A DNA stretch of 9,273 nt from a virus (taxonomy: Duplodnaviria; Heunggongvirae; Uroviricota; Caudoviricetes): positions 1-9,273 of IMG/VR virus record IMGVR_UViG_2531839476_000009. One strand, given 5' to 3'. The stretch's first letter is position 1. Each line of letters opens with the position of its first letter. The position numbers were made by a program, and so were the translations under genes. The notes under the pieces were generated by a model that ran no database searches, was not told where the DNA came from, and was given only the letters and a program-made list of their open reading frames with translations. Below are positions 1-9,273 of the stretch, piece by piece.

Positions 1-1
1 A

Positions 2-571
2 ATGACCCCGAATTTTGCGACCACCATGACTAACGCGCTTGCGGGTAAGCAACCGAAGGATGCCACCCTGACGGCGCTGGCGGAGCTTGCTACATCAGCA
101 GATAAACTCCCATATTTTACAGGGGCAGATCGTGCCGCGTTAACCGCGTTGACAAGTGTTGGACGTGCCATTCTTGGTAAAACCAGCACTCAGGGAGTTC
201 TTGATTACCTTGGTTTGGGAGAAGCGGCGAAAAGGGATGTGGGCACAGGAGAAAATCAGATACCGGATATGTCAGCCTGGAAAAGAAATCCGAGTTCTAA
301 TCGCTGGAGAAAATTGCCTGATGGAACCATCATTCAAATGGGAATATCAGCATCAGGGCCATTAGGCTCACCTGTAAATATCACCCTGCCGATATCTTTC
401 AGCAATACCAATTATTGTGTTGTTGCATCGTACGATAATGCACGGTCAGGTGTGTCAACAATGGTTAGTTTTGCAGCGTTACCTGTTTCACCATCGCAAT
501 TTTCCCTGATGTCATCTGTGACTGAGCAAGGAATAAATCCTTTTGCTTACTGGATTGCTTTTGGAGATTAA
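2..571 (+). CDS. Tail fibre protein, C-terminal part (5' end lies upstream of the window); constant region up to about residue 72, then the currently expressed variable receptor-binding tip
   Basis: ORF open from the window start, stop TAA 569-571. The crossover site at 198-223 lies in frame inside it and encodes ...DYLGLGE.... It is directly followed by a tail-fibre assembly gene, the Mu S-U / P2 H-G arrangement. Confidence 0.85.
   Translation: MTPNFATTMTNALAGKQPKDATLTALAELATSADKLPYFTGADRAALTALTSVGRAILGKTSTQGVLDYLGLGEAAKRDVGTGENQIPDMSAWKRNPSSNRWRKLPDGTIIQMGISASGPLGSPVNITLPISFSNTNYCVVASYDNARSGVSTMVSFAALPVSPSQFSLMSSVTEQGINPFAYWIAFGD
198..223. repeat. Left crossover site for the serine DNA invertase (gix/pix/cix/hix-like, 26 bp)
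   Basis: ttcttgattaccttggtttgggagaa. Its inner half plus core forms a perfect 15-bp inverted repeat (210-224 ttggtttgggagaag) with 2062-2076. Imperfect dyad half-sites flank a central 2 bp, as in the Gin/Hin site family. Confidence 0.75.
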
Positions 572-574
572 TAA

Positions 575-994
575 ATGGATAGATACTTCTATTCACAAAA
601 AGAAAATGGTTTTTTTACCGATTTAAATAAAGCACCTTCAGATGCTGTTGAGATAACCACGGATGAATGGCTGTTACTACTGGATGGTCAGGATAATGGC
701 ATGAAAATAGTCAGCAATCAGGAGGGATATCCGGTTTTGACAGAGCAACCACCTTTATCAAAAGAAAACCTTATTGCATTGGCGGATTTGAAAAAAAGAA
801 AACTTATTAATGAAGCCAACGAGCACATGAACAGCAGACAATGGCCAGGTAAAGCGGCGATTGGTCGCCTGAAAGGTGAGGAACTGGCGCAATATAATTT
901 GTGGCTGGATTATCTGGACGCACTGGAACTGGTCGATACTTCCGGTGCGCCAGATATTGAATGGCCTACGCCTCCGGCAGTTCAGGCCAGATGA
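575..994 (+). CDS. Tail fibre assembly protein (chaperone for the + orientation fibre tip)
   Basis: ATG at 575, 4 nt after the fibre stop. C-terminal motif ...LWLDYLDALELVDTSGAPDIEWPTPP resembles the conserved Tfa C-terminus. Sits where Mu U / P2 G would be. Confidence 0.8.
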   Translation: MDRYFYSQKENGFFTDLNKAPSDAVEITTDEWLLLLDGQDNGMKIVSNQEGYPVLTEQPPLSKENLIALADLKKRKLINEANEHMNSRQWPGKAAIGRLKGEELAQYNLWLDYLDALELVDTSGAPDIEWPTPPAVQAR

Positions 995-1571
995 CGTCCG
1001 GCGCTGTGCTGGTATCTGTTGCCGTCACCGCGTCAATGTAATCCAGCACAGCGTTAAGTCGGGGGTTTTCTGTCTGCATCAGCTTCCGCCCGGCCTGCAA
1101 TTTCAGTTGAATCAGACTAATGGAAGCCATTGCAGTATCAATCAGTGACTGACGCTGTGCTTCTGCCGCGCCTACTGCGGCGCTATGCTGTGCCTCAGTA
1201 TCTGTCACCCATTTCTCACCATCCCATTCATCGTATGGCGTTAACGGGGCGATAGTGGTTGTATTTTCAGGATAATCACCCGGAGCTGTGATTTCTTTCG
1301 ATTCTCCTGTTTCGGTGCTATAGATGATTTCACCGCGATGGTCTGGCACATATTCCCATGAGTTAAAATCTGCAGAACGGCAGATTGCATAACCAGCTTT
1401 ATGTGTAACTGGTGCATCTAAACAAGAACATGCCGGGATACCGACGCCGACAGCGAGATATTCAGTTGATGTAGAAATATATTCCCGCGTTTCACCATCA
1501 TAATTATAAACGGTAATATCTCCCGCTTTTATGGCAATGAGTTCGCTATTTAATACAGCTTTATTCATCAT
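966..1571 (-). CDS. Tail fibre assembly protein (alternative, for the - orientation fibre tip)
   Basis: N-terminus MMNKAVLNSELIAIKAGDITVYNYDGETREY... and C-terminus ...LNAVLDYIDAV...APDVIWPELP are typical of enterobacterial Tfa/gpG-family proteins. Start overlaps the upstream fibre stop (ATGA). Confidence 0.85.
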   Translation of the reverse strand: MMNKAVLNSELIAIKAGDITVYNYDGETREYISTSTEYLAVGVGIPACSCLDAPVTHKAGYAICRSADFNSWEYVPDHRGEIIYSTETGESKEITAPGDYPENTTTIAPLTPYDEWDGEKWVTDTEAQHSAAVGAAEAQRQSLIDTAMASISLIQLKLQAGRKLMQTENPRLNAVLDYIDAVTATDTSTAPDVIWPELPEA

Positions 1572-2088
1572 GCGGCCCTTACAATATAATTAAAAGCGAT
1601 GTTACGAGGACGAGTTTCTGTACCTACATTTTCACTAATTTCACCATAACGTTTAACACTACGAGAGCTAATAGCTCGTAGTGAGGAAGGCACATTAAGA
1701 CCGGGTTCGTCCGTTTTAACTATTCCCCCGTCACCGTATGTAGCCAGTATTCCTGGGTTTACTCCTTCCCGTGCACTTCCTGCGGCGAGTCCGTCCCCTG
1801 TCCATAATTCCATATAGTGTGCATGGTCCAAAATTGTGTGTGGCTGCCAATTAAGCAAAGCGCGACCAGTATCAATCCCGCGACCGTCATCCCAGCCACG
1901 AATAAATTCACCGCGTAAATCAGGCAATTTATTGGTCGGGTAAGCCTTTGCCAGTTCCGGGTATTCTTCAGCAGAAAAAGCCGCACCATTGCATTTCAGC
2001 CAGCCTGTTGGCGGAGTGGCTGAAGGCCACGGAACAGGCACCCCAACCGGTAATGCAGAGCCTTCTCCCAAACCAACGTTTAAGAAAA
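1568..2088 (-). CDS. Alternative tail-fibre variable C-terminal cassette (promoterless here; would fuse to the constant fibre region after inversion)
   Basis: Reading frame runs through the right crossover site and encodes the same LGLGE junction as the expressed fibre. Contains a tail-collar-like motif (PVGVPVPWPSATPPTGWLKCNGAAFSAEEYPELAKAYP). The ATG at 2116 in the ORF track is unlikely to be a real start. Confidence 0.8.
2063..2088. repeat. Right crossover site for the serine DNA invertase (26 bp)
   Basis: ttctcccaaaccaacgtttaagaaaa, 14/14 identical to the reverse complement of the inner half plus core of the left site. Lies 55 bp upstream of the invertase ATG. Confidence 0.75.
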
Positions 2089-2143
2089 TGCAGAGATTAC
2101 GGCTAACTGGCATCATCCCCGGTTTTTATTCAGGGGATCCATC

Positions 2144-2743
2144 ATGCTTATTGGCTATGTCCGCGTATCAACAAATGACCAGAATACAGAATTGCAGCGT
2201 AACGCGCTGGAGTGCGCAGGATGTGAACTAATTTTTGAAGATAAAATCAGCGGAACGAAATCAGCCAGACCGGGATTGAAAAAACTGATCAGAACGCTAT
2301 CAGAAGGAGATACGCTGGTTGTCTGGAAGCTGGACAGACTGGGCAGAAGTATGAAACACCTGATCACGCTTATTGAGGAATTGCGGGAAAAAGGTGTTAA
2401 TTTCCGTAGTCTGACGGACAGCATTGACACATCAACACCCATGGGGCGTTTCTTTTTTCACGTCATGGGGGCTTTAGCCGAAATGGAACGTGAATTAATT
2501 GTAGAGCGTACACTGGCCGGGCTGGCAGCAGCACGCGCACAAGGACGCATTGGCGGACGTCGCCCGAAGTTGACAAAAGAACAACACGAGCAAATAGCGA
2601 GGTTGATTAAAAACGGTCATGACAGGAAACAACTGGCGATCATTTACGACATCGGCATATCGACGATTTATCGTTATCACCCTGTAGGCGATATACAGGC
2701 TGAAGAAACAACCAGGCAGACTCAGGAAAATGAAAACCGCTAA
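2144..2743 (+). CDS. Site-specific DNA invertase, serine recombinase of the Gin/Pin/Cin/Hin family
   Basis: N-terminus MLIGYVRVSTNDQN... with catalytic-serine motif, ...VVWKLDRLGRS..., ...GRFFFHVMGALAEMERELI...RIGGRRPKLT... and a C-terminal helix-turn-helix region. SD aggggat lies upstream of the ATG. Very close to Gin/Pin as I recall them. Confidence 0.95.
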   Translation: MLIGYVRVSTNDQNTELQRNALECAGCELIFEDKISGTKSARPGLKKLIRTLSEGDTLVVWKLDRLGRSMKHLITLIEELREKGVNFRSLTDSIDTSTPMGRFFFHVMGALAEMERELIVERTLAGLAAARAQGRIGGRRPKLTKEQHEQIARLIKNGHDRKQLAIIYDIGISTIYRYHPVGDIQAEETTRQTQENENR

Positions 2744-2762
2744 TCTGACCATTAGCGGTTTT
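2733..2762. terminator. Probable bidirectional rho-independent terminator between the convergent invertase and gpU genes
   Basis: Perfect 12-bp stem aaaaccgctaat / attagcggtttt with a 6-nt loop. It overlaps the invertase stop codon and has T-rich flanks on both strands. Confidence 0.6.
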
Positions 2763-2769
2763 GCGTTAA

Positions 2770-3264
2770 TCAAAACAGCCCTTTAACGGAGCTGGCCGCG
2801 CTGTTAAGGGATGATGTGACCTTATCTTTGAAGCCGGACAGCATATCACTGAACGATGAGGATTGCAGGCGCTCCCGCAAATCCTCATCACAGCGTTCAA
2901 GGGTCAGTGAAAATTCTATCTTTTTCGCCTTACCGTAGCGATCAAACTCGGAACGGGTCGTATTCGTTCCAGTCAGGACATACATGCCGTAAATCTGCCC
3001 GACGCCATCAATCAAAGGCCAGGGTCGTCCTGTATAAGCCTGCGTGGTCAGCAGCGACAGCGACACTTCGCCACCTGTAATTTCAGGATAAAGCACACCA
3101 GAAAGAACGATGCGATCATCACCTGCACCGATATACTGCCAGCTTGCTGAACGGTTAATGCGTTCATTTTTCACATGCCGCCAGCTTTTGTTTTGCTGTA
3201 ACTGCTGATGCGGCAGCGTGCGCAGCTCAAAAACAAACATGCCGTAGATCATCATCATGGCCAT
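2770..3264 (-). CDS. Tail protein gpU-like
   Basis: 164 aa. N-terminus ...MMMIYGMFVFELRTLPHQQLQ...SWRH... and ...IEFSLTLER... resemble P2 gpU. Lies immediately downstream of the tape-measure gene. Confidence 0.9.
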   Translation of the reverse strand: MAMMMIYGMFVFELRTLPHQQLQQNKSWRHVKNERINRSASWQYIGAGDDRIVLSGVLYPEITGGEVSLSLLTTQAYTGRPWPLIDGVGQIYGMYVLTGTNTTRSEFDRYGKAKKIEFSLTLERCDEDLRERLQSSSFSDMLSGFKDKVTSSLNSAASSVKGLF

Positions 3265-3270
3265 GACTCC

Positions 3271-6086
3271 TCAATCTTTATCGTAAAAACTGCCACGCCC
3301 GGCACGGGCGCGCCGTTCCATTTCTGCCCTGACCATTTCACCGACCAGTTTCGCCAGTTCGCGGGGATTCTGCGTAACAACGTTATGCAGATGAACATGA
3401 ATTTCACCACCAAATTCGGAGGCAACAGGCTCCCGGTTACGGGAAGTTACAGGAACTGATGCCACTGGAGATCGTATAGCCTCCGCCACCGGGCGGGAGC
3501 TGGCCGCAACAACAGTGACCAGCGCCGGAGGCAGCGGAGCCGGGACCACGGGTGTGATATTAATTGCGGGGGCAGGCTTACTGACCTGCGCAATCTTCCG
3601 CTCCTGCCACTCCCCACGAACAGCAAGTGCGCGGGGCAGGTTCTTAAAGACAATATCGCCGGGGCCAATGCGTTTTTTCGTCTCATCAACCAGCTTACCT
3701 GTGTTATCAGCAATTTTGCTGAGTCTGCGTAGCGTCCCGGTATTGCTGTCTGTGAGCGGTTTGTTGTCTTTGGGTTTATCACCTCCGGTGCCATTGCCAT
3801 TTTCCACAGGCTTCGGCGGATTGATTTTCGCAAGGTCCCCCTGAAGCAAGGCAACCTTGTCCTGAAGAATGGCCGCACGCTGTGCGTCTTCGATTTTCTT
3901 GCGCGCCTTTTCCGCTTCATCCGGAAGGACGCCAAGTTTTTCAAGTATCCACGCCAGCGTATCCAGTAGCATTTTTGCAGGTGTCAGAACAAGCTGTAAC
4001 GCACCGCCAAGAACGTTACCGAATATCTCGCCAGCACTGGTACATTTATCCAGCGTTTCCTTGCTGGACTCCATCGGTGACAGCAGCGATTTAAACCAGT
4101 TAAACACCTGGCTGATCCCGCTTCCGATTGCGTCAAAAACAGGACCAAACCGTTCAAAGGTTTCGCGCAACGGGGTCAGCCTTTCCATAATCCCGCTGAA
4201 CACCCCGGCAAAAATGCCCTGATGGGATCCCAGTATTTCCAGATAAGAACGGCAGCTCCGGCAAGCGCAGCCACGATAAGACCAACCGGACTGAACAGCG
4301 CCCCGATAGCGCCTCCCAGTAAAGAAACGGAACCCGTCACCATTCCCCATAGTGCTGGCAGGACCCTGACAGCATTCATTGATCCGGTCAGGAGAGAAAA
4401 ACCAAGACGCAGTTTTGCCAGCGGACCAGCAAGCACACCAATAGCCAGCGACAACGAGCCAACCGTTGCAGTCATTGCCAGCAACGCACCGCCTGCTATC
4501 AGTAGCTGGCGCGTCAGTGCCGGATGGGCCTGCGCCAGCGCCGTCACCCTTGATACCACCCGCGCGAGCCACTGCGTGACAGAACGCAGCGGACCGTCAA
4601 TCAGATCTGCAATGCGGATGCGCAACCCTTCCCATGCACTGCCGAGTGATTTCAGATCGCCGTCAAGGTTGTTGGCCATAACCTTTGCTGTGCGTTCAGC
4701 CTCACCGCGCGCGCCTTCAAGTTCTTTTCTCAGTTTGGGTAAGGAACCGTCACCCGCTGCATCAACGAGCGCCATAAACGATGTGAAAGCCTCTTCTCCG
4801 GCAATGTCCTTAAAGAACGATACCCGGTCAACTTCCCCGTATTTGCGGGTGGCTTTATAAAGGTCGGCCAGCACATCCTCCATCGGGCGCATTTTGCCCC
4901 CGGCATCCGAGACGGACACGCCCAGCTCTTTCAGAGCTTCTGCCGCCGCCTTTGGCGGTGATGCCAGACGAGCCAGGCTGGCACGCATTGCCGTCCCGGC
5001 ATCACTCCCTCTGATGCCCATATTCGCCAGCACGCCAGCCATCGCTGCGGCCTGCTCCAGCGATATTCCCAGCTTACCCGCCACCGGACCTGCATATTTC
5101 ATGGTTTCGCCCAGTGCGCGAAGGTCAGTGTTGGTACGGGTAAACGCTGCGGTGAGTGTGTCACCGACCCGGTCCATCTGGTCAGCAGAAAGGCCGAACT
5201 GCGTCAGGATATTTGAGCCAATATCCGCCGTCTCGCCGAGATCCATGCCGCCAGCCGTTGCCATGCTCAGCACGCCCGGAAGCGCAGCCTGAATGGCCTG
5301 CGGTGTGAAGCCAGCCATTGCAAGAAATGCCTGCCCACTGGCGGCATCGCCTGCGGTGAACTGCGTTTCAGAGCCAAGTTTTAACGCCTGCTCACGCAGC
5401 GCCTTAAACTGCGGGCTGTTCTGGTCGATTCGCGTCAGTGCCTGAACGCGGGACATCTCTTTCCCGAACCCGATCGCAGGCTGCAAAAAACGCCCGGCAG
5501 CATAGCCGCCAGCCGCTGCCGCACCAATTGCCAGCGCACCACCTGTTTTCAGTTTTCCCGCGGTTTCCTGCGCGCGCGAATACCGCTCACGCGCCCGCGT
5601 TACACGCGCAAGCGCCTGCCGTTCGCGTTCAAGCTGGTTGTTGTACTGTTCGGTGCGTCTGATGGCCTGCTGGATGGTGTTATCGCTGCCTGTCAGGGAA
5701 ATGCCGTGGCGTTTCAGCTCTCCGCCAAGCTCCCGCATTTTCTGAATTTCCCGTGTACGCGATTCATTCAGGCGTTCAAGCCGGGTGCTTAACTGCTGCA
5801 TCAGCTTTTGTTGTTTTTCGCTGAGCACTGTACCCGTGCGTTGTAACTGATTAAGGGCGTTAAGCTGGCGTCGTGCTTTCACGACGCCAGCATCCGCTTT
5901 ACTGACAGCGTCGCGGGCGCGCTCAAATGATCGCGCCTGACGCTCGAGATTTTTGATCGCCCCCTGCGTTCGCTGGATGGAGTCACCAAACTGCCCCATC
6001 AGGCGGCGGGCGTTTTCGGCAGGTCGGGTCAGCCTGTCAACGGCGCTGAAAGCGACCCGGATATCAAGAGTCTTCATTGTCTGCAT
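3271..6086 (-). CDS. Tail tape measure protein (gpT-like); reading frame interrupted by a 1-nt frameshift near 4210-4214
   Basis: Two overlapping ORFs (4176-6113 and 3271-4572) in different frames. Both carry tape-measure-like sequence; the upstream piece ends in a hydrophobic segment and the downstream frame only reads sensibly from about 4200. Start is probably the ATG at 6086 or 6077, overlapping the E' stop; the track start at 6113 is a GTG. Confidence 0.85.
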
Positions 6087-6593
6087 TCCCGCTGCGAAGT
6101 GCCGCCCGCTCACGCCAGCTAACCACTTCGCCGGGCGTCATCATGAAGATTTCGGCGGGCGACCAGTTAAAAATGGCGGCAATATCCGCCACAAAGTCTT
6201 CTATGTGCTCAAAGCACACAACCGTGATCAGGCTTCCGTCGCCTGTTCGTTCTTCCCGCCAGAGTCCGCACCGCTCAAAAAATTTACGGCAACCACACAT
6301 AACTGAATAAAGTCACGGGATGCCATTTTTTTGATCGTCACTTCATCCAGTCGCGGTGATGTCACGCGTGACAGCAGCGTAAACATGGATTCCGCTTTCA
6401 GATTCAGCACATCAGACAGCGACAAATCTCGCAGAGATCCAGCCTGCTCAATAGCCCCGGTGATCTCCACATACGTGATTTTTTCGCCGCCTCGCTCAAT
6501 GGGTTGGGTAAGTTTTACGCCACGCTCACTGGTTTCTTTCACAGTGTCAGTAACTACCGTGTTTTCGGTATCGATGTTTTTCGTCTCTTTCAT
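6064..6593 (-). CDS. gpE+E' tail assembly chaperone fusion produced by programmed -1 ribosomal frameshift (about 176 aa)
   Basis: E ORF (6228-6593) and E' ORF (6064-6300) overlap with E' in the -1 frame. The slippery heptamer T TTT TTG sits in the zero frame inside the overlap. Position is immediately upstream of the tape-measure gene, as for P2 E/E' and lambda G/GT. Confidence 0.7.
6228..6593 (-). CDS. gpE-like tail assembly chaperone (non-frameshifted product)
   Basis: 121-aa ORF with SD aaggag 8 nt upstream of the ATG, located between the tube and tape-measure genes. Confidence 0.85.
   Translation of the reverse strand: MKETKNIDTENTVVTDTVKETSERGVKLTQPIERGGEKITYVEITGAIEQAGSLRDLSLSDVLNLKAESMFTLLSRVTSPRLDEVTIKKMASRDFIQLCVVAVNFLSGADSGGKNEQATEA
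6276..6282 (-). promoter_or_regulatory. Slippery heptamer T TTT TTG for the E/E' -1 frameshift
   Basis: Minus-strand sequence aaT TTT TTG agc read in the E frame as N-F-L-S; after a -1 slip the E' frame reads F-F-E-R-C-G-L. Confidence 0.7.
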
Positions 6594-6614
6594 CAGGAAA
6601 CTCCTTTCAGTCAG

Positions 6615-6635
6615 AGGCGACGCACTGCGTCGCCT
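6615..6635 (-). other. Intercistronic hairpin between tube and gpE genes (possible mRNA-stability or attenuator element)
   Basis: aggcgacgc-act-gcgtcgcct, a 9-bp perfect stem with no following U-tract on the coding strand. Confidence 0.35.
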
Positions 6636-6647
6636 GCATATTACTTA

Positions 6648-7159
6648 TCAGCCAAGCCCAAGCGCGGAACGGATGCGATCGGGCACAATGTCCTTGCCGT
6701 CCTTCCGGTAGATGTGGTTCAACAGGTCGATTTCCCACAGCGGGCGATCGTTAACGCTCAGCTTGTAGTAGGTGTTTTTGACAGCGTAAGTGTGTGATGT
6801 GGCTTCGCCCTGTTTGGCTTCCCCCATATCAATTTCCGTCACACGCCCGCGCATCTCGATTTCATACAGATCGCTTTCTGCATCGGTGTAGTATTCACCC
6901 GCAAAACGCAGCAGCGTGCCGTCAATCGTGCCGCCATACTTAAGGAACAGCTCACGAACTGCGCCCCCCATGACAAAGCTCGCATCAAGCGCGGAGTCAT
7001 CCAGGCCGAGATCAATACTTACCGCTCCCATCATGCCACACCCCGGTAGCTGTCGGTTTTGCGCGTCAGCTTAGGCAAAGTGACGGACGTCACCTTACCC
7101 ACTTCGTTTTCACCATCCACAAACAGCGTAAAAAAGCGAAGATGTTTTGGCACAGCCAT
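6648..7159 (-). CDS. Tail tube protein (FII-like); reading frame interrupted by a 1-nt frameshift near 7038-7045
   Basis: The 128-aa ORF (6648-7034) contains ...DLGLDD...LRFAG...EIEMRGR..EIDMGEAKQGE..., resembling P2 FII but without its N-terminus. The missing N-terminus (MAVPKHLRFFTLFVDGENEVGKVTSVTLPKLTRKTDSYRG) is encoded in another frame, starting at an ATG at 7159-7157 that overlaps the sheath stop (TGATG). Confidence 0.85.
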
Positions 7160-8343
7160 CAGGCACCTCCCAGCACCGCAAATGCGGGGCCAAAGAATTC
7201 ATCAGTAAACGTCTGGTAAAGCTCCATGTCTTCCAGCGGGGGAACAGGCGTATATTTGTAGCGAATACGCACACGCCCCTGACGTAAATCCGTGGTGCTG
7301 TTATCCACCACGTCATACCAGCACTCCGCGCCAATCAGTTTCCCGGCAGTAACCAGTGAATCCAGTTTTGCCCTGATGGCACTGATAACATCCTTCACGT
7401 TCGCAGGCGTCAGTGGACTGTCGATGGTTTCAAACTGCGCTTCCGCAATTGAATCAGCCAGCACCTGTGCGGTTCGGGTATACACCTCAAAGATGTAGGC
7501 GTTCGTTTCCGGTGTGCGGTTGCCCCAGAAGCGGAACCCGTTGCGACGAATAATGGTCGTGATTTCTTTGTTGTTGAGGCTGTTGGCATCGCTGTCTTCG
7601 GCCTGCAACGACCAGAACACTTGCCTCGACATCCCCAGCACATTTTTAACCGGAACGTTGGACAGTGATTTGTGCCACCCCTGCTCAATGGTCAATGTAC
7701 GCACGAAGGCCGCACGCATAAGCAGGCGCGGGGAACGTTCGTTTTTGCCACTTTTCGGGTTGTAGGCGATGAAGTCCGGCCATAAGAGCATCACCTCACG
7801 TTCGTTGAATTTCTGGCGGTAGGTAATCGCCTCAGCCATCGTGTTACAGCCGTGACAGGAGGCATACACAAACGCGCGCAGTTTACCTGCAATCACGCAC
7901 ACGGATTTTGTTACCGCCTCCGTGTCCAGCTCCGGCGCGGCCAGAATACGCGGACGGTATCCGATGCTTTCATCCTGCTCTGCAACAAGCAGCGCATACA
8001 TCCCCGTATAGCTGCCGTCATCCTCAGAACCACCGATAACCAGTTGATCCTGCGTTTTTCCGTCTTCTTCTTTGTGTTCAGCCACGCGAACGACGATCAC
8101 CTTTGTGCTCACCTGGTCTGCGATGGCCTTAAGCGCACGATAAAGCGTCCCCGTTGTTCCGCATTTTCCCAGCACGTCATTGACGCGGGTCAGCAGTGTG
8201 GGCTTGTTCAGCGGGAACAGCTCCGCGTCCGCATCATCCGCCGTTGCCACGATACCGATAACACTGGAATCAACATCATTAATCGCTGTTACCAGGTCGG
8301 TACTTTCCGTAACACGGGCACCATGAAAACGAGTTTCACTCAT
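7159..8343 (-). CDS. Tail sheath protein (FI-like)
   Basis: 394 aa. Motifs ...FPLNKP..., ...RILA.P.LDT..., ...LLWPDF..., ...EQGWHK.LSN..., ...IRRNGFRFWGNRT..., ...YTRTAQV..., ...YKYTPVPPLE... resemble P2 FI. SD aagggg lies upstream of the ATG. Confidence 0.95.
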   Translation of the reverse strand: MSETRFHGARVTESTDLVTAINDVDSSVIGIVATADDADAELFPLNKPTLLTRVNDVLGKCGTTGTLYRALKAIADQVSTKVIVVRVAEHKEEDGKTQDQLVIGGSEDDGSYTGMYALLVAEQDESIGYRPRILAAPELDTEAVTKSVCVIAGKLRAFVYASCHGCNTMAEAITYRQKFNEREVMLLWPDFIAYNPKSGKNERSPRLLMRAAFVRTLTIEQGWHKSLSNVPVKNVLGMSRQVFWSLQAEDSDANSLNNKEITTIIRRNGFRFWGNRTPETNAYIFEVYTRTAQVLADSIAEAQFETIDSPLTPANVKDVISAIRAKLDSLVTAGKLIGAECWYDVVDNSTTDLRQGRVRIRYKYTPVPPLEDMELYQTFTDEFFGPAFAVLGGA

Positions 8344-8500
8344 AGCTTCAGCCCCTTGTATCCGTTAAATGATTCGGCAACAATCATCACCCAGCACGCG
8401 CGTAATCTCACCCCTGCGCCGTTCTCCCGCCACCGCGACAACAAAAAGCAGTAACCCCCTCCGCACGCACATGCGACCATGCCGCACAGGGAGGGAACAG
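8344..8500. promoter_or_regulatory. Divergent intergenic region between sheath (-) and gpD-like (+) genes; presumed promoter region
   Basis: 157-bp non-coding gap between two divergent starts, each with a good SD. No confident -35/-10 or Ogr-type late promoter motif could be placed by eye. Confidence 0.3.
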
Positions 8501-9241
8501 ATGACCGACACCACCATGCAATTGCTCAGTCAGGGCACAGACCCCGTGAAAATGCCGGATTTTGATATTCTCGCGGAGGGTAAAACGCTGTCAGGCGTGG
8601 CAGAGCGCCTGATGAGCCTGTCACTGACCGACAACCGGGGATTTGAAGCGGACCAGCTCACCATCACGCTGGATGATGCGGATGGTCAGTTGCAGCTACC
8701 GCCACGGGGCGCGCGCCTGACGGTTCTCATTGGCTGGAAAGGAGAACCGCTGACAGAAAAAGGCACTTACATTGTTGATGAAATCGCTCACGAAGGACCG
8801 CCGGACAGGCTGACTGTTTCAGCCAGAAGCGCAGATTTTCGGGATGAATTTAACGTTAAACGTGAGGTGTCCTGGCATGATGTGACCGTTGAGCGTGTGG
8901 TATCCGCCATCGCTCATCGGTATGGTCTGAAACCGCAAATCAGCGAAATGCTGATGGATATCGAAATCGACCACGCCGACCAGACCGAAGAAAGCGACAT
9001 GTCCTTCCTTACGCGCATGGCGGAAATGCTGGGCGCAATCACCACGGTAAAAAGCGGTAATCTGTTATTCATCATGCCCGGTGGTGGCGTGAACGCACAG
9101 GGCCAGCCGTTGCCATCGTTCGCCATCACACGCAGCAGCGGCGATCGCCATCAGTTCCGCATTGCTGACCGCGAGGCGTATACGGGGGTACGCGCTTACT
9201 GGCTTGATCTTAATTACGGGAAAAAGAAAAAGTCAGCGTGA
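8501..9241 (+). CDS. gpD-like tail protein (late control gene D family), N-terminal 246 aa; possibly truncated
   Basis: ATG at 8501 preceded by SD gggaggg. Motif ...LSLTDNRGFEADQLTITLDDADGQLQLPPRGARLTVLIGWKG... is typical of gpD/VgrG-type N-terminal domains. The in-frame Met at 8369 in the ORF track lacks an RBS. Confidence 0.8.
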   Translation: MTDTTMQLLSQGTDPVKMPDFDILAEGKTLSGVAERLMSLSLTDNRGFEADQLTITLDDADGQLQLPPRGARLTVLIGWKGEPLTEKGTYIVDEIAHEGPPDRLTVSARSADFRDEFNVKREVSWHDVTVERVVSAIAHRYGLKPQISEMLMDIEIDHADQTEESDMSFLTRMAEMLGAITTVKSGNLLFIMPGGGVNAQGQPLPSFAITRSSGDRHQFRIADREAYTGVRAYWLDLNYGKKKKSA

Positions 9242-9273
9242 AACGCCGCAAACCGCCAAAACCGAAAAAGAGA

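Follow-up and report, generated by a model that had tools for sequence, protein, structure and literature searches.

The divergent arrangement of tail genes in the DNA analysed here is the normal, inherited order of one branch of P2-like phages, comprising P88, SEN4/5, KSP20 and their relatives. The window, a 9,273-nucleotide stretch covering positions 1 to 9,273 of the Caudoviricetes record IMGVR_UViG_2531839476_000009, is very probably the tail region of a P88-like (Xuanwuvirus-type) prophage of the Peduoviridae, in which the FI-FII-E/E'-T-U block was inverted once in a common ancestor and has been inherited in that state ever since. In the map of the lineage, the genes O...V, W, J, I, H and G run rightward to a probable bidirectional terminator, U, T, E', E, FII and FI run leftward, and a predicted control region of ~155 bp separates FI from D and ogr, which again run rightward. 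The initial annotation had offered three readings of this layout. A lineage-specific architecture is the one that stands, while a recent in-place inversion and a misassembly do not withstand comparison with 1358 bacterial genomes and with functional phages.

The open reading frames and their Pfam matches place U, T, E/E', FII and FI on the minus strand and the invertase and gpD on the plus strand. The minus-strand block begins with gpU (2770–3264; Phage_P2_GpU, 1.2e-38; 47% identity to P2 U), followed by a broken gpT tape-measure gene read as two overlapping ORFs (3271–6077; PhageMin_Tail) and by the chaperone gpE (6228–6593) with its −1 frameshift extension E', which reaches 6064 and carries the Phage_P2_GpE match in its own frame (6064–6593 in all). 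A broken gpFII tail-tube gene (6648–7159; Phage_tube, on the residues encoded by 6648–7034) and the gpFI tail-sheath gene, whose ORF is intact (7159–8343; Phage_sheath_1 and 1C; 43% identity to P2 FI), complete the block. gpD, the late control D or baseplate hub gene (8501–9273; Phage_GPD), lies on the plus strand and runs past the end of the window; its counterparts in P88 and in E. coli LR882997 are annotated as D or tail protein. Exactly 157 bp separate the FI start codon (CAT on the plus strand, 8341–8343) from the ATG of D at 8501. These gene positions agree with the initial annotation, which had set the sheath-to-U block on the minus strand, opposite to the invertase and gpD, with U meeting the invertase at a hairpin (2733–2762) and the sheath gene diverging from gpD across the 157-bp gap at 8344–8500.

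Homologues of FI, FII, E/E', T, U and D are all present, as judged by Pfam and by BLASTP against P2 (31–47% identity), and make up the P2-like (Peduoviridae) contractile-tail core module. The seven tail genes keep the internal order of the P2 F operon (PF: FI FII E E' T U D, then ogr), with the same range of protein identity (31–47%) and the same TTTTTTG frameshift site in E/E'. In the window this slippery heptamer lies at 6282–6276 on the minus strand and the E' frame is −1 relative to E, as expected if E and E' are produced by programmed −1 frameshifting at TTTTTTG. What is absent is the canonical P2 order, in which FI through U and D are co-oriented and follow H and G: here FI–U lie on the minus strand and H, G and D on the plus strand. 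In P2 the genes J I H G ... FI FII E E' T U D ogr all occupy one strand, so the inversion of the block with respect to P2 is genuine. The F operon of P2 is co-oriented with H-G and includes D, with U and D overlapping. In the window, by contrast, FI–U occupy the opposite strand, and D and ogr would form a separate divergent unit with its own ribosome-binding site and a candidate −10 element; ogr is found downstream of D in relatives. The co-oriented order ascribed earlier to P2-type clusters thus holds for P2 itself, all on one strand, and does not hold for every P2-like phage.

In a whole-locus alignment against related prophages, as the initial annotation had proposed, the window proves 96–97% identical to and collinear with P88 (genus Xuanwuvirus), Citrobacter phage phiSM and many E. 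coli prophages. P88 (Xuanwuvirus P88, NC_026014/KP063541) has the same gene order and strands as the window, from H through the invertase and U-T-E-FII-FI (−) to D (+), at 95.8% nucleotide identity over the alignable 78%, and it shares the 157-bp FI|D gap and the terminator hairpin. It differs in the variable cassettes of the tail fibre, which make up the ~22% of the window without alignment, and lacks the private 1-nt indels that the window carries in T, FII and D. Xuanwuvirus P884B11 and further phages are likewise collinear, the best full-length match reaches 97.2% identity, and 97 complete E. coli genomes match the window collinearly over its whole length. Identity and collinearity with P88, compared over the 9.3-kb window rather than over a whole genome, would assign the window to Xuanwuvirus. 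The initial annotation had also named functional close relatives with a native divergent order as evidence against an anomaly, and such relatives exist: P88 (PMC5285337), phiSM (PMC6456863) and SEN5 (PMC5261728) all form plaques, and SEN4/5 are inducible or plaque-forming.

The divergent layout extends well beyond this genus. A species-level survey covered 56 loci from different species, sorted by FI identity. All 23 loci with a P88-type sheath (FI at least 66% identical) are divergent and show the order ogr- D- | FI+ FII+ E+ T+ U+ | H- I- J-, and all 33 P2-type loci (FI at most 46% identical) are co-oriented. The divergent loci come from Salmonella, Citrobacter, Edwardsiella, Enterobacter, Kosakonia, Symbiopectobacterium, Mixta, Pantoea, Erwinia, Izhakiella, Kluyvera, Trabulsiella and Serratia. 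Salmonella phage SEN5 (genus Senquatrovirus) and Serratia phage KSP20 are divergent as well; SEN4/SEN5 and KSP20, together with prophage PP4, share the D|FI arrangement at 53–67% FI identity with the window. The SEN4/5 subcluster was reportedly defined by Casjens and Grose in 2016. The departure from the P2 order is thus a trait of the P88/SEN4/KSP20 clade and is no bar to membership of the window in the Peduoviridae. The arrangement is the usual one in a very widespread prophage family and calls for no separate explanation. For annotation, this means that the P2 gene order is unfit as a template for all Peduoviridae and that FI|D divergence can serve as a quick diagnostic of the P88/SEN4/KSP20 branch. 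The papers on P88, phiSM, SEN4/5 and PP4/KSP20 and a 2026 survey of P2-like phages make no mention of the inversion, orientation or order of these genes.

Neighbour-joining trees of FI and D place the inverted-layout loci in one clade (24/24 on the FI tree, 22/22 on the D tree) free of co-oriented loci, a pattern indicating one ancient inversion. The co-oriented order is taken as the ancestral one on three grounds: midpoint rooting, a single outgroup locus (L058) that is co-oriented, and the order general among the other contractile-tail clusters. The protein identities between P88 and P2 suggest that the ancestral event was an in-place inversion rather than an import, being 46% for FI, 42% for FII, 46% for U and 33% for T inside the block and 49% for D, 47% for Q, 44% for P, 41% for N and 47% for V outside it. 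We regard as unlikely the alternative by which the ancestor took an FI–U cassette from another contractile-tail phage and inserted it in reverse. Module replacement of this kind would fit the mosaic nature of P2-like phages, the much closer similarity of H and I of P88 to P2 (64%) than that of the remaining genome, and the separate tail-module rearrangement known at locus L037. The FI–U proteins, however, have diverged from P2 as much as the flanking D, V, W, N, P and Q, the loci fall in the same clade on the FI and D trees, and FI, U, D and J diverge in step inside that clade.

An invertase gene adjoins one boundary of the block, and the reach of this enzyme bears on two of the remaining explanations. 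The serine DNA invertase (2144–2743, plus strand; Resolvase, 8.9e-52, and HTH_7, 1.4e-12) is of the Gin/Pin/Cin/Hin type. To its left lies the C-terminal variable part of the tail-fibre gene H (2–571, plus strand), the copy now joined to the constant part, whose product is 70% identical to P2 H residues 312–387 and which is annotated as tail fibre in P88 and LR882997. A tail-fibre assembly gene (G/tfa) in active orientation follows at 575–994 (plus strand; tail fiber assembly protein in P88 and LR882997). The minus strand carries an alternative, tfaE-like assembly gene (966–1571; tfaE in the LR882997 annotation) and an alternative C-terminal fibre cassette in silent orientation (1568–2116; Collar domain). 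Two gix/pix-like crossover sites form an inverted repeat around these cassettes, the left one, TTCTCCCAAACCAAGGT, at 207–223 on the minus strand and the right one, TTCTCCCAAACCAACGT, found by inverted-repeat and site searches at 2063–2079 on the plus strand. A search of the window with the crossover sequence TTCTCCCAAACCAASGT returned these two matches at up to 3 mismatches, where 0.04 were expected; no third copy appeared in the window at that threshold, and neither end of the 5.6-kb block bears a site. Compared with each other in inverted orientation, the two junctions share an exact match of at most 9 nt, a length reached in 26 of 300 shuffles. The system thus resembles the Gin, Cin, Pin and Hin segments (Mu G, P1 C, e14 P) in pairing a serine invertase with two inverted crossover sites that flank alternative fibre tips and their chaperones. 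It covers 207–2079 only, and the 5.6-kb tail block lies outside it and has no such sites. The invertase would act solely on the 1.9 kb of tail-fibre DNA that this pair of sites encloses.

Against this background, a recent, strain-specific in-place inversion of about 5.6 kb, by short inverted repeats or by the adjoining invertase, is extremely improbable. The orientation of the block relative to P2 and the position of the invertase gene would suit such an event. Yet the same orientation is found in P88, phiSM, SEN5, KSP20, 1358 E. coli genomes and the 23 loci of other species, the crossover sites are at neither boundary, and the inverted repetition between the junctions is at chance level. The view taken in the initial annotation, that gix-like sites and repeats are missing from the boundaries, is borne out by both searches. 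So is its caution about the invertase, which we take not to be involved because the crossover sites at 207–223 and 2063–2079 flank the tail-fibre segment only and because most members of the lineage have no invertase: 20 of the 23 inverted-layout loci lack a match, and SEN5 has none between U and the fibre genes. Nothing other than proximity to the invertase would favour an inverton, with the block flipping back and forth as a programmed switch for tail production, and we give this reading next to no weight. Flanking inverted repeats are absent, and the FI|D junction has a single orientation in at least 98.9% of carrier E. coli genomes (1358/1373). Every species locus (23/23), SEN5 and KSP20 show one orientation too, and the two orientations are not seen side by side among close relatives.

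That the source genome was misassembled at 2740–2780 and 8340–8510 is hardly conceivable. Of 5426 complete E. coli genomes, 1358 (about a quarter) carry the FI|D junction without a break, which rules out both an assembly error and an event peculiar to one strain; for the invertase|U junction the number is 631. In these hundreds to more than a thousand independent complete genomes, and in sequenced virion DNA, the junctions match at 95–100% identity. Several single-base homopolymer indels in the window do suggest imperfect sequence quality, but errors at the level of single bases are no sign of structural errors. T has lost 1 nt after 4209 (A6 to A5), which breaks its frame, a lesion present in none of 1220 E. 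coli genomes; FII lacks 1 nt after 7038 when compared with P88 and LR882997; and in D the loss of 1 nt after 9226 brings the frame to a stop at 9241. In FI, about 17 codons are out of frame between indels at 7686 (+1) and 7737 (−1), and the invertase has a 9-bp in-frame deletion relative to LR882997. The virion genes of the window are therefore not all intact, with T, FII and D broken in comparison with P88 and LR882997. The frameshifts in these three genes are private to the window and reflect either a dead prophage or an error-prone assembly; if they are real, this copy would make no tails, whatever its gene order.

With the block inverted, FI and D diverge from each other, and the sequence between them (8344–8500) looks like a bidirectional late promoter. 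Its length is kept, at ~150–157 bp (131 bp in one case) in 20 species loci and SEN5, the gap in SEN5 again being 157 bp, and the alignment contains conserved blocks. We aligned 21 sequences for promoter motifs, with SEN5 added as the 22nd. The region contains a predicted Ogr-type activator dyad, TCT-N12-ACA (extended, ACAACAAAAA; 8423–8440, centre at 8431.5), whose form (T/C)(C/G)T-N12-ACA recurs in 21/21 aligned sequences. A perfect TGT-N12-ACA dyad is present in locus L020 and, with the same geometry, in SEN5; the window contains no perfect copy, and the search with one mismatch allowed returned the conserved TCT-N12-ACA. A candidate −10 element for a leftward FI promoter (GATGAT, 8383–8388, minus strand) retains ATNAT in 21/21 aligned sequences and lies 46.5 bp from the dyad centre. 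On the other side, a candidate extended −10 element for a rightward D promoter (TGc GACCAT, 8472–8480, plus strand) follows the pattern TGn-NANNNT in 21/21, 46–47 bp from the centre, with TGn preceding the right-hand hexamer in the 21 aligned sequences. The spacing from the dyad to the −10-like elements is 46–47 bp on each side in all 22 sequences, while the intervening sequence varies. The same extended dyad motif occurs in the P|O divergent region of P88. Across the P88 genome the short dyad is not enriched (4 matches against 1.8 expected, not significant alone), and the case for the dyad accordingly draws on its position, conservation and spacing. A scan with the sigma-70 consensus found no promoter-like site in the gap, as expected of promoters that depend on an activator and have no −35 element.

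These features suggest that the 157-bp gap acts as one shared bidirectional late promoter like PP/PO of P2. In P2 the mapping is experimental, with a shared Ogr site at 3057–3087 and starts at 3016 and 3127, 55–56 bp away. The counterpart in the window is predicted only, with −10 elements 46.5 and 46 bp from the dyad centre; in both cases the divergent region measures ~155–175 bp and has one dyad. Control by Ogr through a dyad upstream of FI is a feature of the P2 F operon and is likewise predicted here; the binding of Ogr to the dyad and the positions of the transcription starts are both deduced from sequence. One dyad-symmetric activator site of the Ogr type would lie ~55 bp from each of two divergent transcription starts. 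Given a single site, one bound activator could switch on FI–U leftward and D-ogr rightward, and we predict that the sheath-to-U operon and D-ogr may both be driven from this one conserved site within the 157-bp gap.

On balance we lean slightly towards a scenario in which the ancestral inversion set the dyad-symmetric PF activator site beside gpD and so created a second bidirectional, single-site, Ogr-dependent late promoter, whose geometry has stayed the same (~46 bp from the site to either −10 element) in at least three groups of phages and in over a dozen genera of enterobacteria. The P88 lineage would then have the PP/PO-like design twice, at P|O and at FI|D. If this is true, two shared sites, P|O and FI|D, serve all late genes of the P88/SEN4/KSP20 branch, compared with three sites in P2, and D-ogr is an Ogr-activated, self-reinforcing unit. 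We did not find a shared FI|D late promoter described in the papers on P88, phiSM, SEN4/5 and PP4/KSP20 or in the 2026 survey.

At the other end of the block, a perfect 12-bp stem with A4/T4 flanks (2733–2762) is the probable bidirectional intrinsic terminator common to the invertase and the FI–U operon. It takes in the stop codon of the invertase gene and stops 7 nt short of that of U, and its folding energy is −16.9 kcal/mol on the plus strand (z −4.9) and −15.6 kcal/mol on the minus strand (z −3.8). This hairpin would end both the FI–U and the invertase transcripts. Many other members of the lineage carry G+C-rich hairpins of unrelated sequence after the U stop codon, several of them flanked by A/T runs.

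The window's gene map, drawn from an ORF list and a Pfam scan, opens with the C-terminal part of the tail-fibre gene H (2-571, plus strand) and a fibre-assembly gene (575-994, plus), both from the ORF list. These are followed by an alternative assembly gene (966-1571, minus; ORF list), an alternative fibre tip (1568-2116, minus; both sources), and a serine invertase (2144-2743, plus; Pfam). Both sources also place gpU (2770-3264), the tape measure T (3271-6077), E and E' (6064-6593), the tube FII (6648-7159), and the sheath FI (7159-8343) on the minus strand, and gpD on the plus strand from 8501, with 157 bp separating the FI and D starts. The TTTTTTG -1 frameshift signal of P2 E/E' is also retained (6282-6276, minus). 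ORF list, Pfam, start-to-start distance, and hairpin position all agree exactly with the coordinates of the initial annotation. The annotated P2 genome carries J I H G and then FI FII E E' T U D ogr on a single strand throughout, so the FI-U block is truly inverted relative to P2, as had been noted. The window proteins share 31-47% identity with their P2 counterparts.

The initial annotation left three explanations for this arrangement: an in-place inversion, a lineage-specific architecture, or a misassembly. Whole-window megablast against phage records identifies P88 (genus Xuanwuvirus) as collinear at 95.8% identity, and Citrobacter phage phiSM, Xuanwuvirus P884B11, and other phages are collinear as well. 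The P88 annotation has the same order and strands: fibre (plus), alternative fibre (minus), invertase (plus), U T E FII FI (minus), and D (plus). P88 is inducible and plaque-forming (PMC5285337), and phiSM is temperate, spontaneously released, and plaque-forming (PMC6456863); the divergent order is thus native to functional relatives, and the block is not an aberrant arrangement. The E. coli chromosome LR882997, the best E. coli match over the full window, is 97.2% identical to it with identical order, within a complete prophage adjoining raiA and bamD. Among 5426 complete E. coli genomes, a junction-spanning query finds the FI|D junction contiguous in 1358 and the invertase|U junction in 631, which excludes both a misassembly at the junctions and a strain-specific event and leaves the lineage-specific architecture standing.

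Two records of these relatives carry features of their own. The phiSM virions are reported to resemble siphoviruses, their long tails being non-contractile (PMC6456863), whereas the deposited genome (OR565851) aligns collinearly to the window, with 95% identity over the genes for sheath, tube, T, U, and D, from which a P2-type contractile tail is predicted. In LR882997 (locus coordinates 23779-24632), the annotated gpD is a CDS shortened to 801 nt and preceded by a pseudogene fragment; damaged D genes may be common among P88-type prophages.

To place the layout in a wider context, a sheath-protein search limited to one genome per species yielded 56 loci, onto which P88 and P2 proteins were placed by local tblastn. 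A single layout, ogr- D- / FI+ FII+ E+ T+ U+ / H- I- J-, is shared by all 23 loci with FI identity of at least 66%, which come from Salmonella, Citrobacter, Edwardsiella, Enterobacter, Kosakonia, Symbiopectobacterium, Mixta, Pantoea, Erwinia, Izhakiella, Kluyvera, Trabulsiella, and Serratia. P2-like co-orientation occurs in all 33 loci with FI identity of at most 46%, alpha-, beta-, and gammaproteobacteria among them. In the phage collection, D also diverges from FI in Salmonella phage SEN5 (genus Senquatrovirus; FI 53-56%) and Serratia phage KSP20 (FI 65%). Separate neighbor-joining trees of FI and D each unite the inverted-layout loci in one clade with no co-oriented locus nested inside.

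The simplest account of these distributions is that the block was inverted in place once, long ago, in the ancestor of the P88/SEN4/KSP20 branch. Replacement of the cassette by one in reverse orientation, likewise ancient, is a weak alternative, since P88 and P2 are as similar inside the block (FI 46, FII 42, U 46, T 33% identity) as they are in the flanking virion genes (D 49, Q 47, P 44, N 41, V 47%). The neighboring invertase is ruled out as the cause. Its crossover sequence, TTCTCCCAAACCAASGT, occurs only at 207-223 (minus) and 2063-2079 (plus), with no third copy in the window at up to three mismatches. These sites enclose the usual tail-fibre invertible segment, which is complete in the window (207-2079) and carries two assembly chaperones, encoded by genes with a tail-to-tail overlap at 966-994, along with two alternative fibre tips. 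The longest match between the two block junctions is 9 nt, a length equalled in 26 of 300 shuffles, bearing out the earlier remark that gix-like sites and repeats are absent from the boundaries. Moreover, an invertase match is limited to three of the 23 loci with the inverted layout, and none is annotated at the corresponding position in SEN5.

Two compared loci stand apart. A 226-kb contig labelled 'Vagococcus sp. WN89Y', a Gram-positive genus (NZ_JBQPOM010000071.1), carries a P88-type prophage (FI 93%, other tail proteins 97-99% identity); contamination from an enterobacterium or a mislabelled assembly is the probable explanation. An alphaproteobacterial P2-like locus from an Asticcacaulis MAG (5843-15000) has FI..U-D co-oriented, with I and J downstream on the opposite strand, an independent tail-module rearrangement unlike the P88-type one.

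The FI|D gap is near-constant in length, about 150-157 bp in 20 species loci and SEN5 (131 bp in two loci when the nearest in-frame ATG is used). Its alignment reveals a conserved (T/C)(C/G)T-N12-ACA dyad followed by ACAAAAA; the window copy is TCT-N12-ACA (8423-8440), and locus L020 and SEN5 have a perfect TGT-N12-ACA. An FI-side ATNAT element lies 46.5 bp from the dyad center and a D-side -10-like hexamer 46-47 bp from it, each in 21/21 aligned sequences and SEN5. The hexamer is preceded by TGn in the aligned sequences and by TGnn in SEN5. The FI start codon lies at a variable distance, and the sequence between dyad and -10-like elements likewise varies. In the window, the candidate elements are GATGAT (8388-8383, minus) and the extended -10 TGcGACCAT (8472-8480, plus). 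With a -10 hexamer centered 46 bp from the site, we infer that transcription would start about 55 bp from the dyad on each side, near 8376 (minus) and 8487 (plus). This predicted geometry matches that of the divergent P2 late promoters PP and PO, which share one activator site (3057-3087) between experimentally annotated starts at 3016 and 3127. The divergent P|O region of P88 (154 bp; 2517-2672 of the compared locus, 14152-14305 of the genome) carries TCT-N12-ACAACAAAAGC, the same extended motif, flanked at 45 and 47 bp by -10-like elements.

Given the constant spacing, the PP/PO-like geometry, and the P|O motif, our proposal is that the gap serves as a second late promoter, bidirectional and dependent on Ogr, the P2-type late activator; from it FI-U would be transcribed to the left and D-ogr to the right. 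Since S and V overlap in P88, a separate PV promoter seems to be absent, and the lineage's late genes may all run from two shared sites. A plain sigma-70 scan returns nothing in the gap, which is the expected outcome where promoters have no -35 element, and the short dyad by itself shows no genome-wide enrichment. Between the convergent invertase and U lies a hairpin (2733-2762) whose 12-bp stem is perfect and bordered by A and T runs. On each strand it folds significantly more stably than shuffled sequences do, and it would end both the leftward operon and the invertase transcript. Unrelated G+C-rich hairpins, several with A/T-run flanks, directly follow the U stop in many other lineage members.

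Public records have shown the inverted architecture ever since KSP20 was deposited (AB452988). As P88, SEN4/5, phiSM, and thousands of prophages are annotated with this map, it is a known and ordinary feature. A search of openly accessible literature turned up no discussion of the inversion or of an FI|D control region; the P88, phiSM, SEN4/5, PP4, and 2026 P2-survey papers are silent on both. Some novelty attaches only to the predicted late promoter, bidirectional and shared, which is an easily tested variant of the known P2 design.

Compared with both P88 and LR882997, the window contains single-base deletions that break T (after 4209; A6 to A5) and FII (after 7038; CC to C) and truncate D (after 9226; in an A-run). 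An indel pair in FI (+1 at 7686, -1 at 7737) shifts about 17 codons, with positions 5 and 2334 also affected. The T lesion is found in none of the 1220 E. coli genomes carrying that stretch. Some indels fall within short homopolymer runs, and the set as a whole stems either from sequencing errors in homopolymers or from decay that this copy of the prophage has recently undergone. The invertase has a 9-bp in-frame deletion relative to LR882997.
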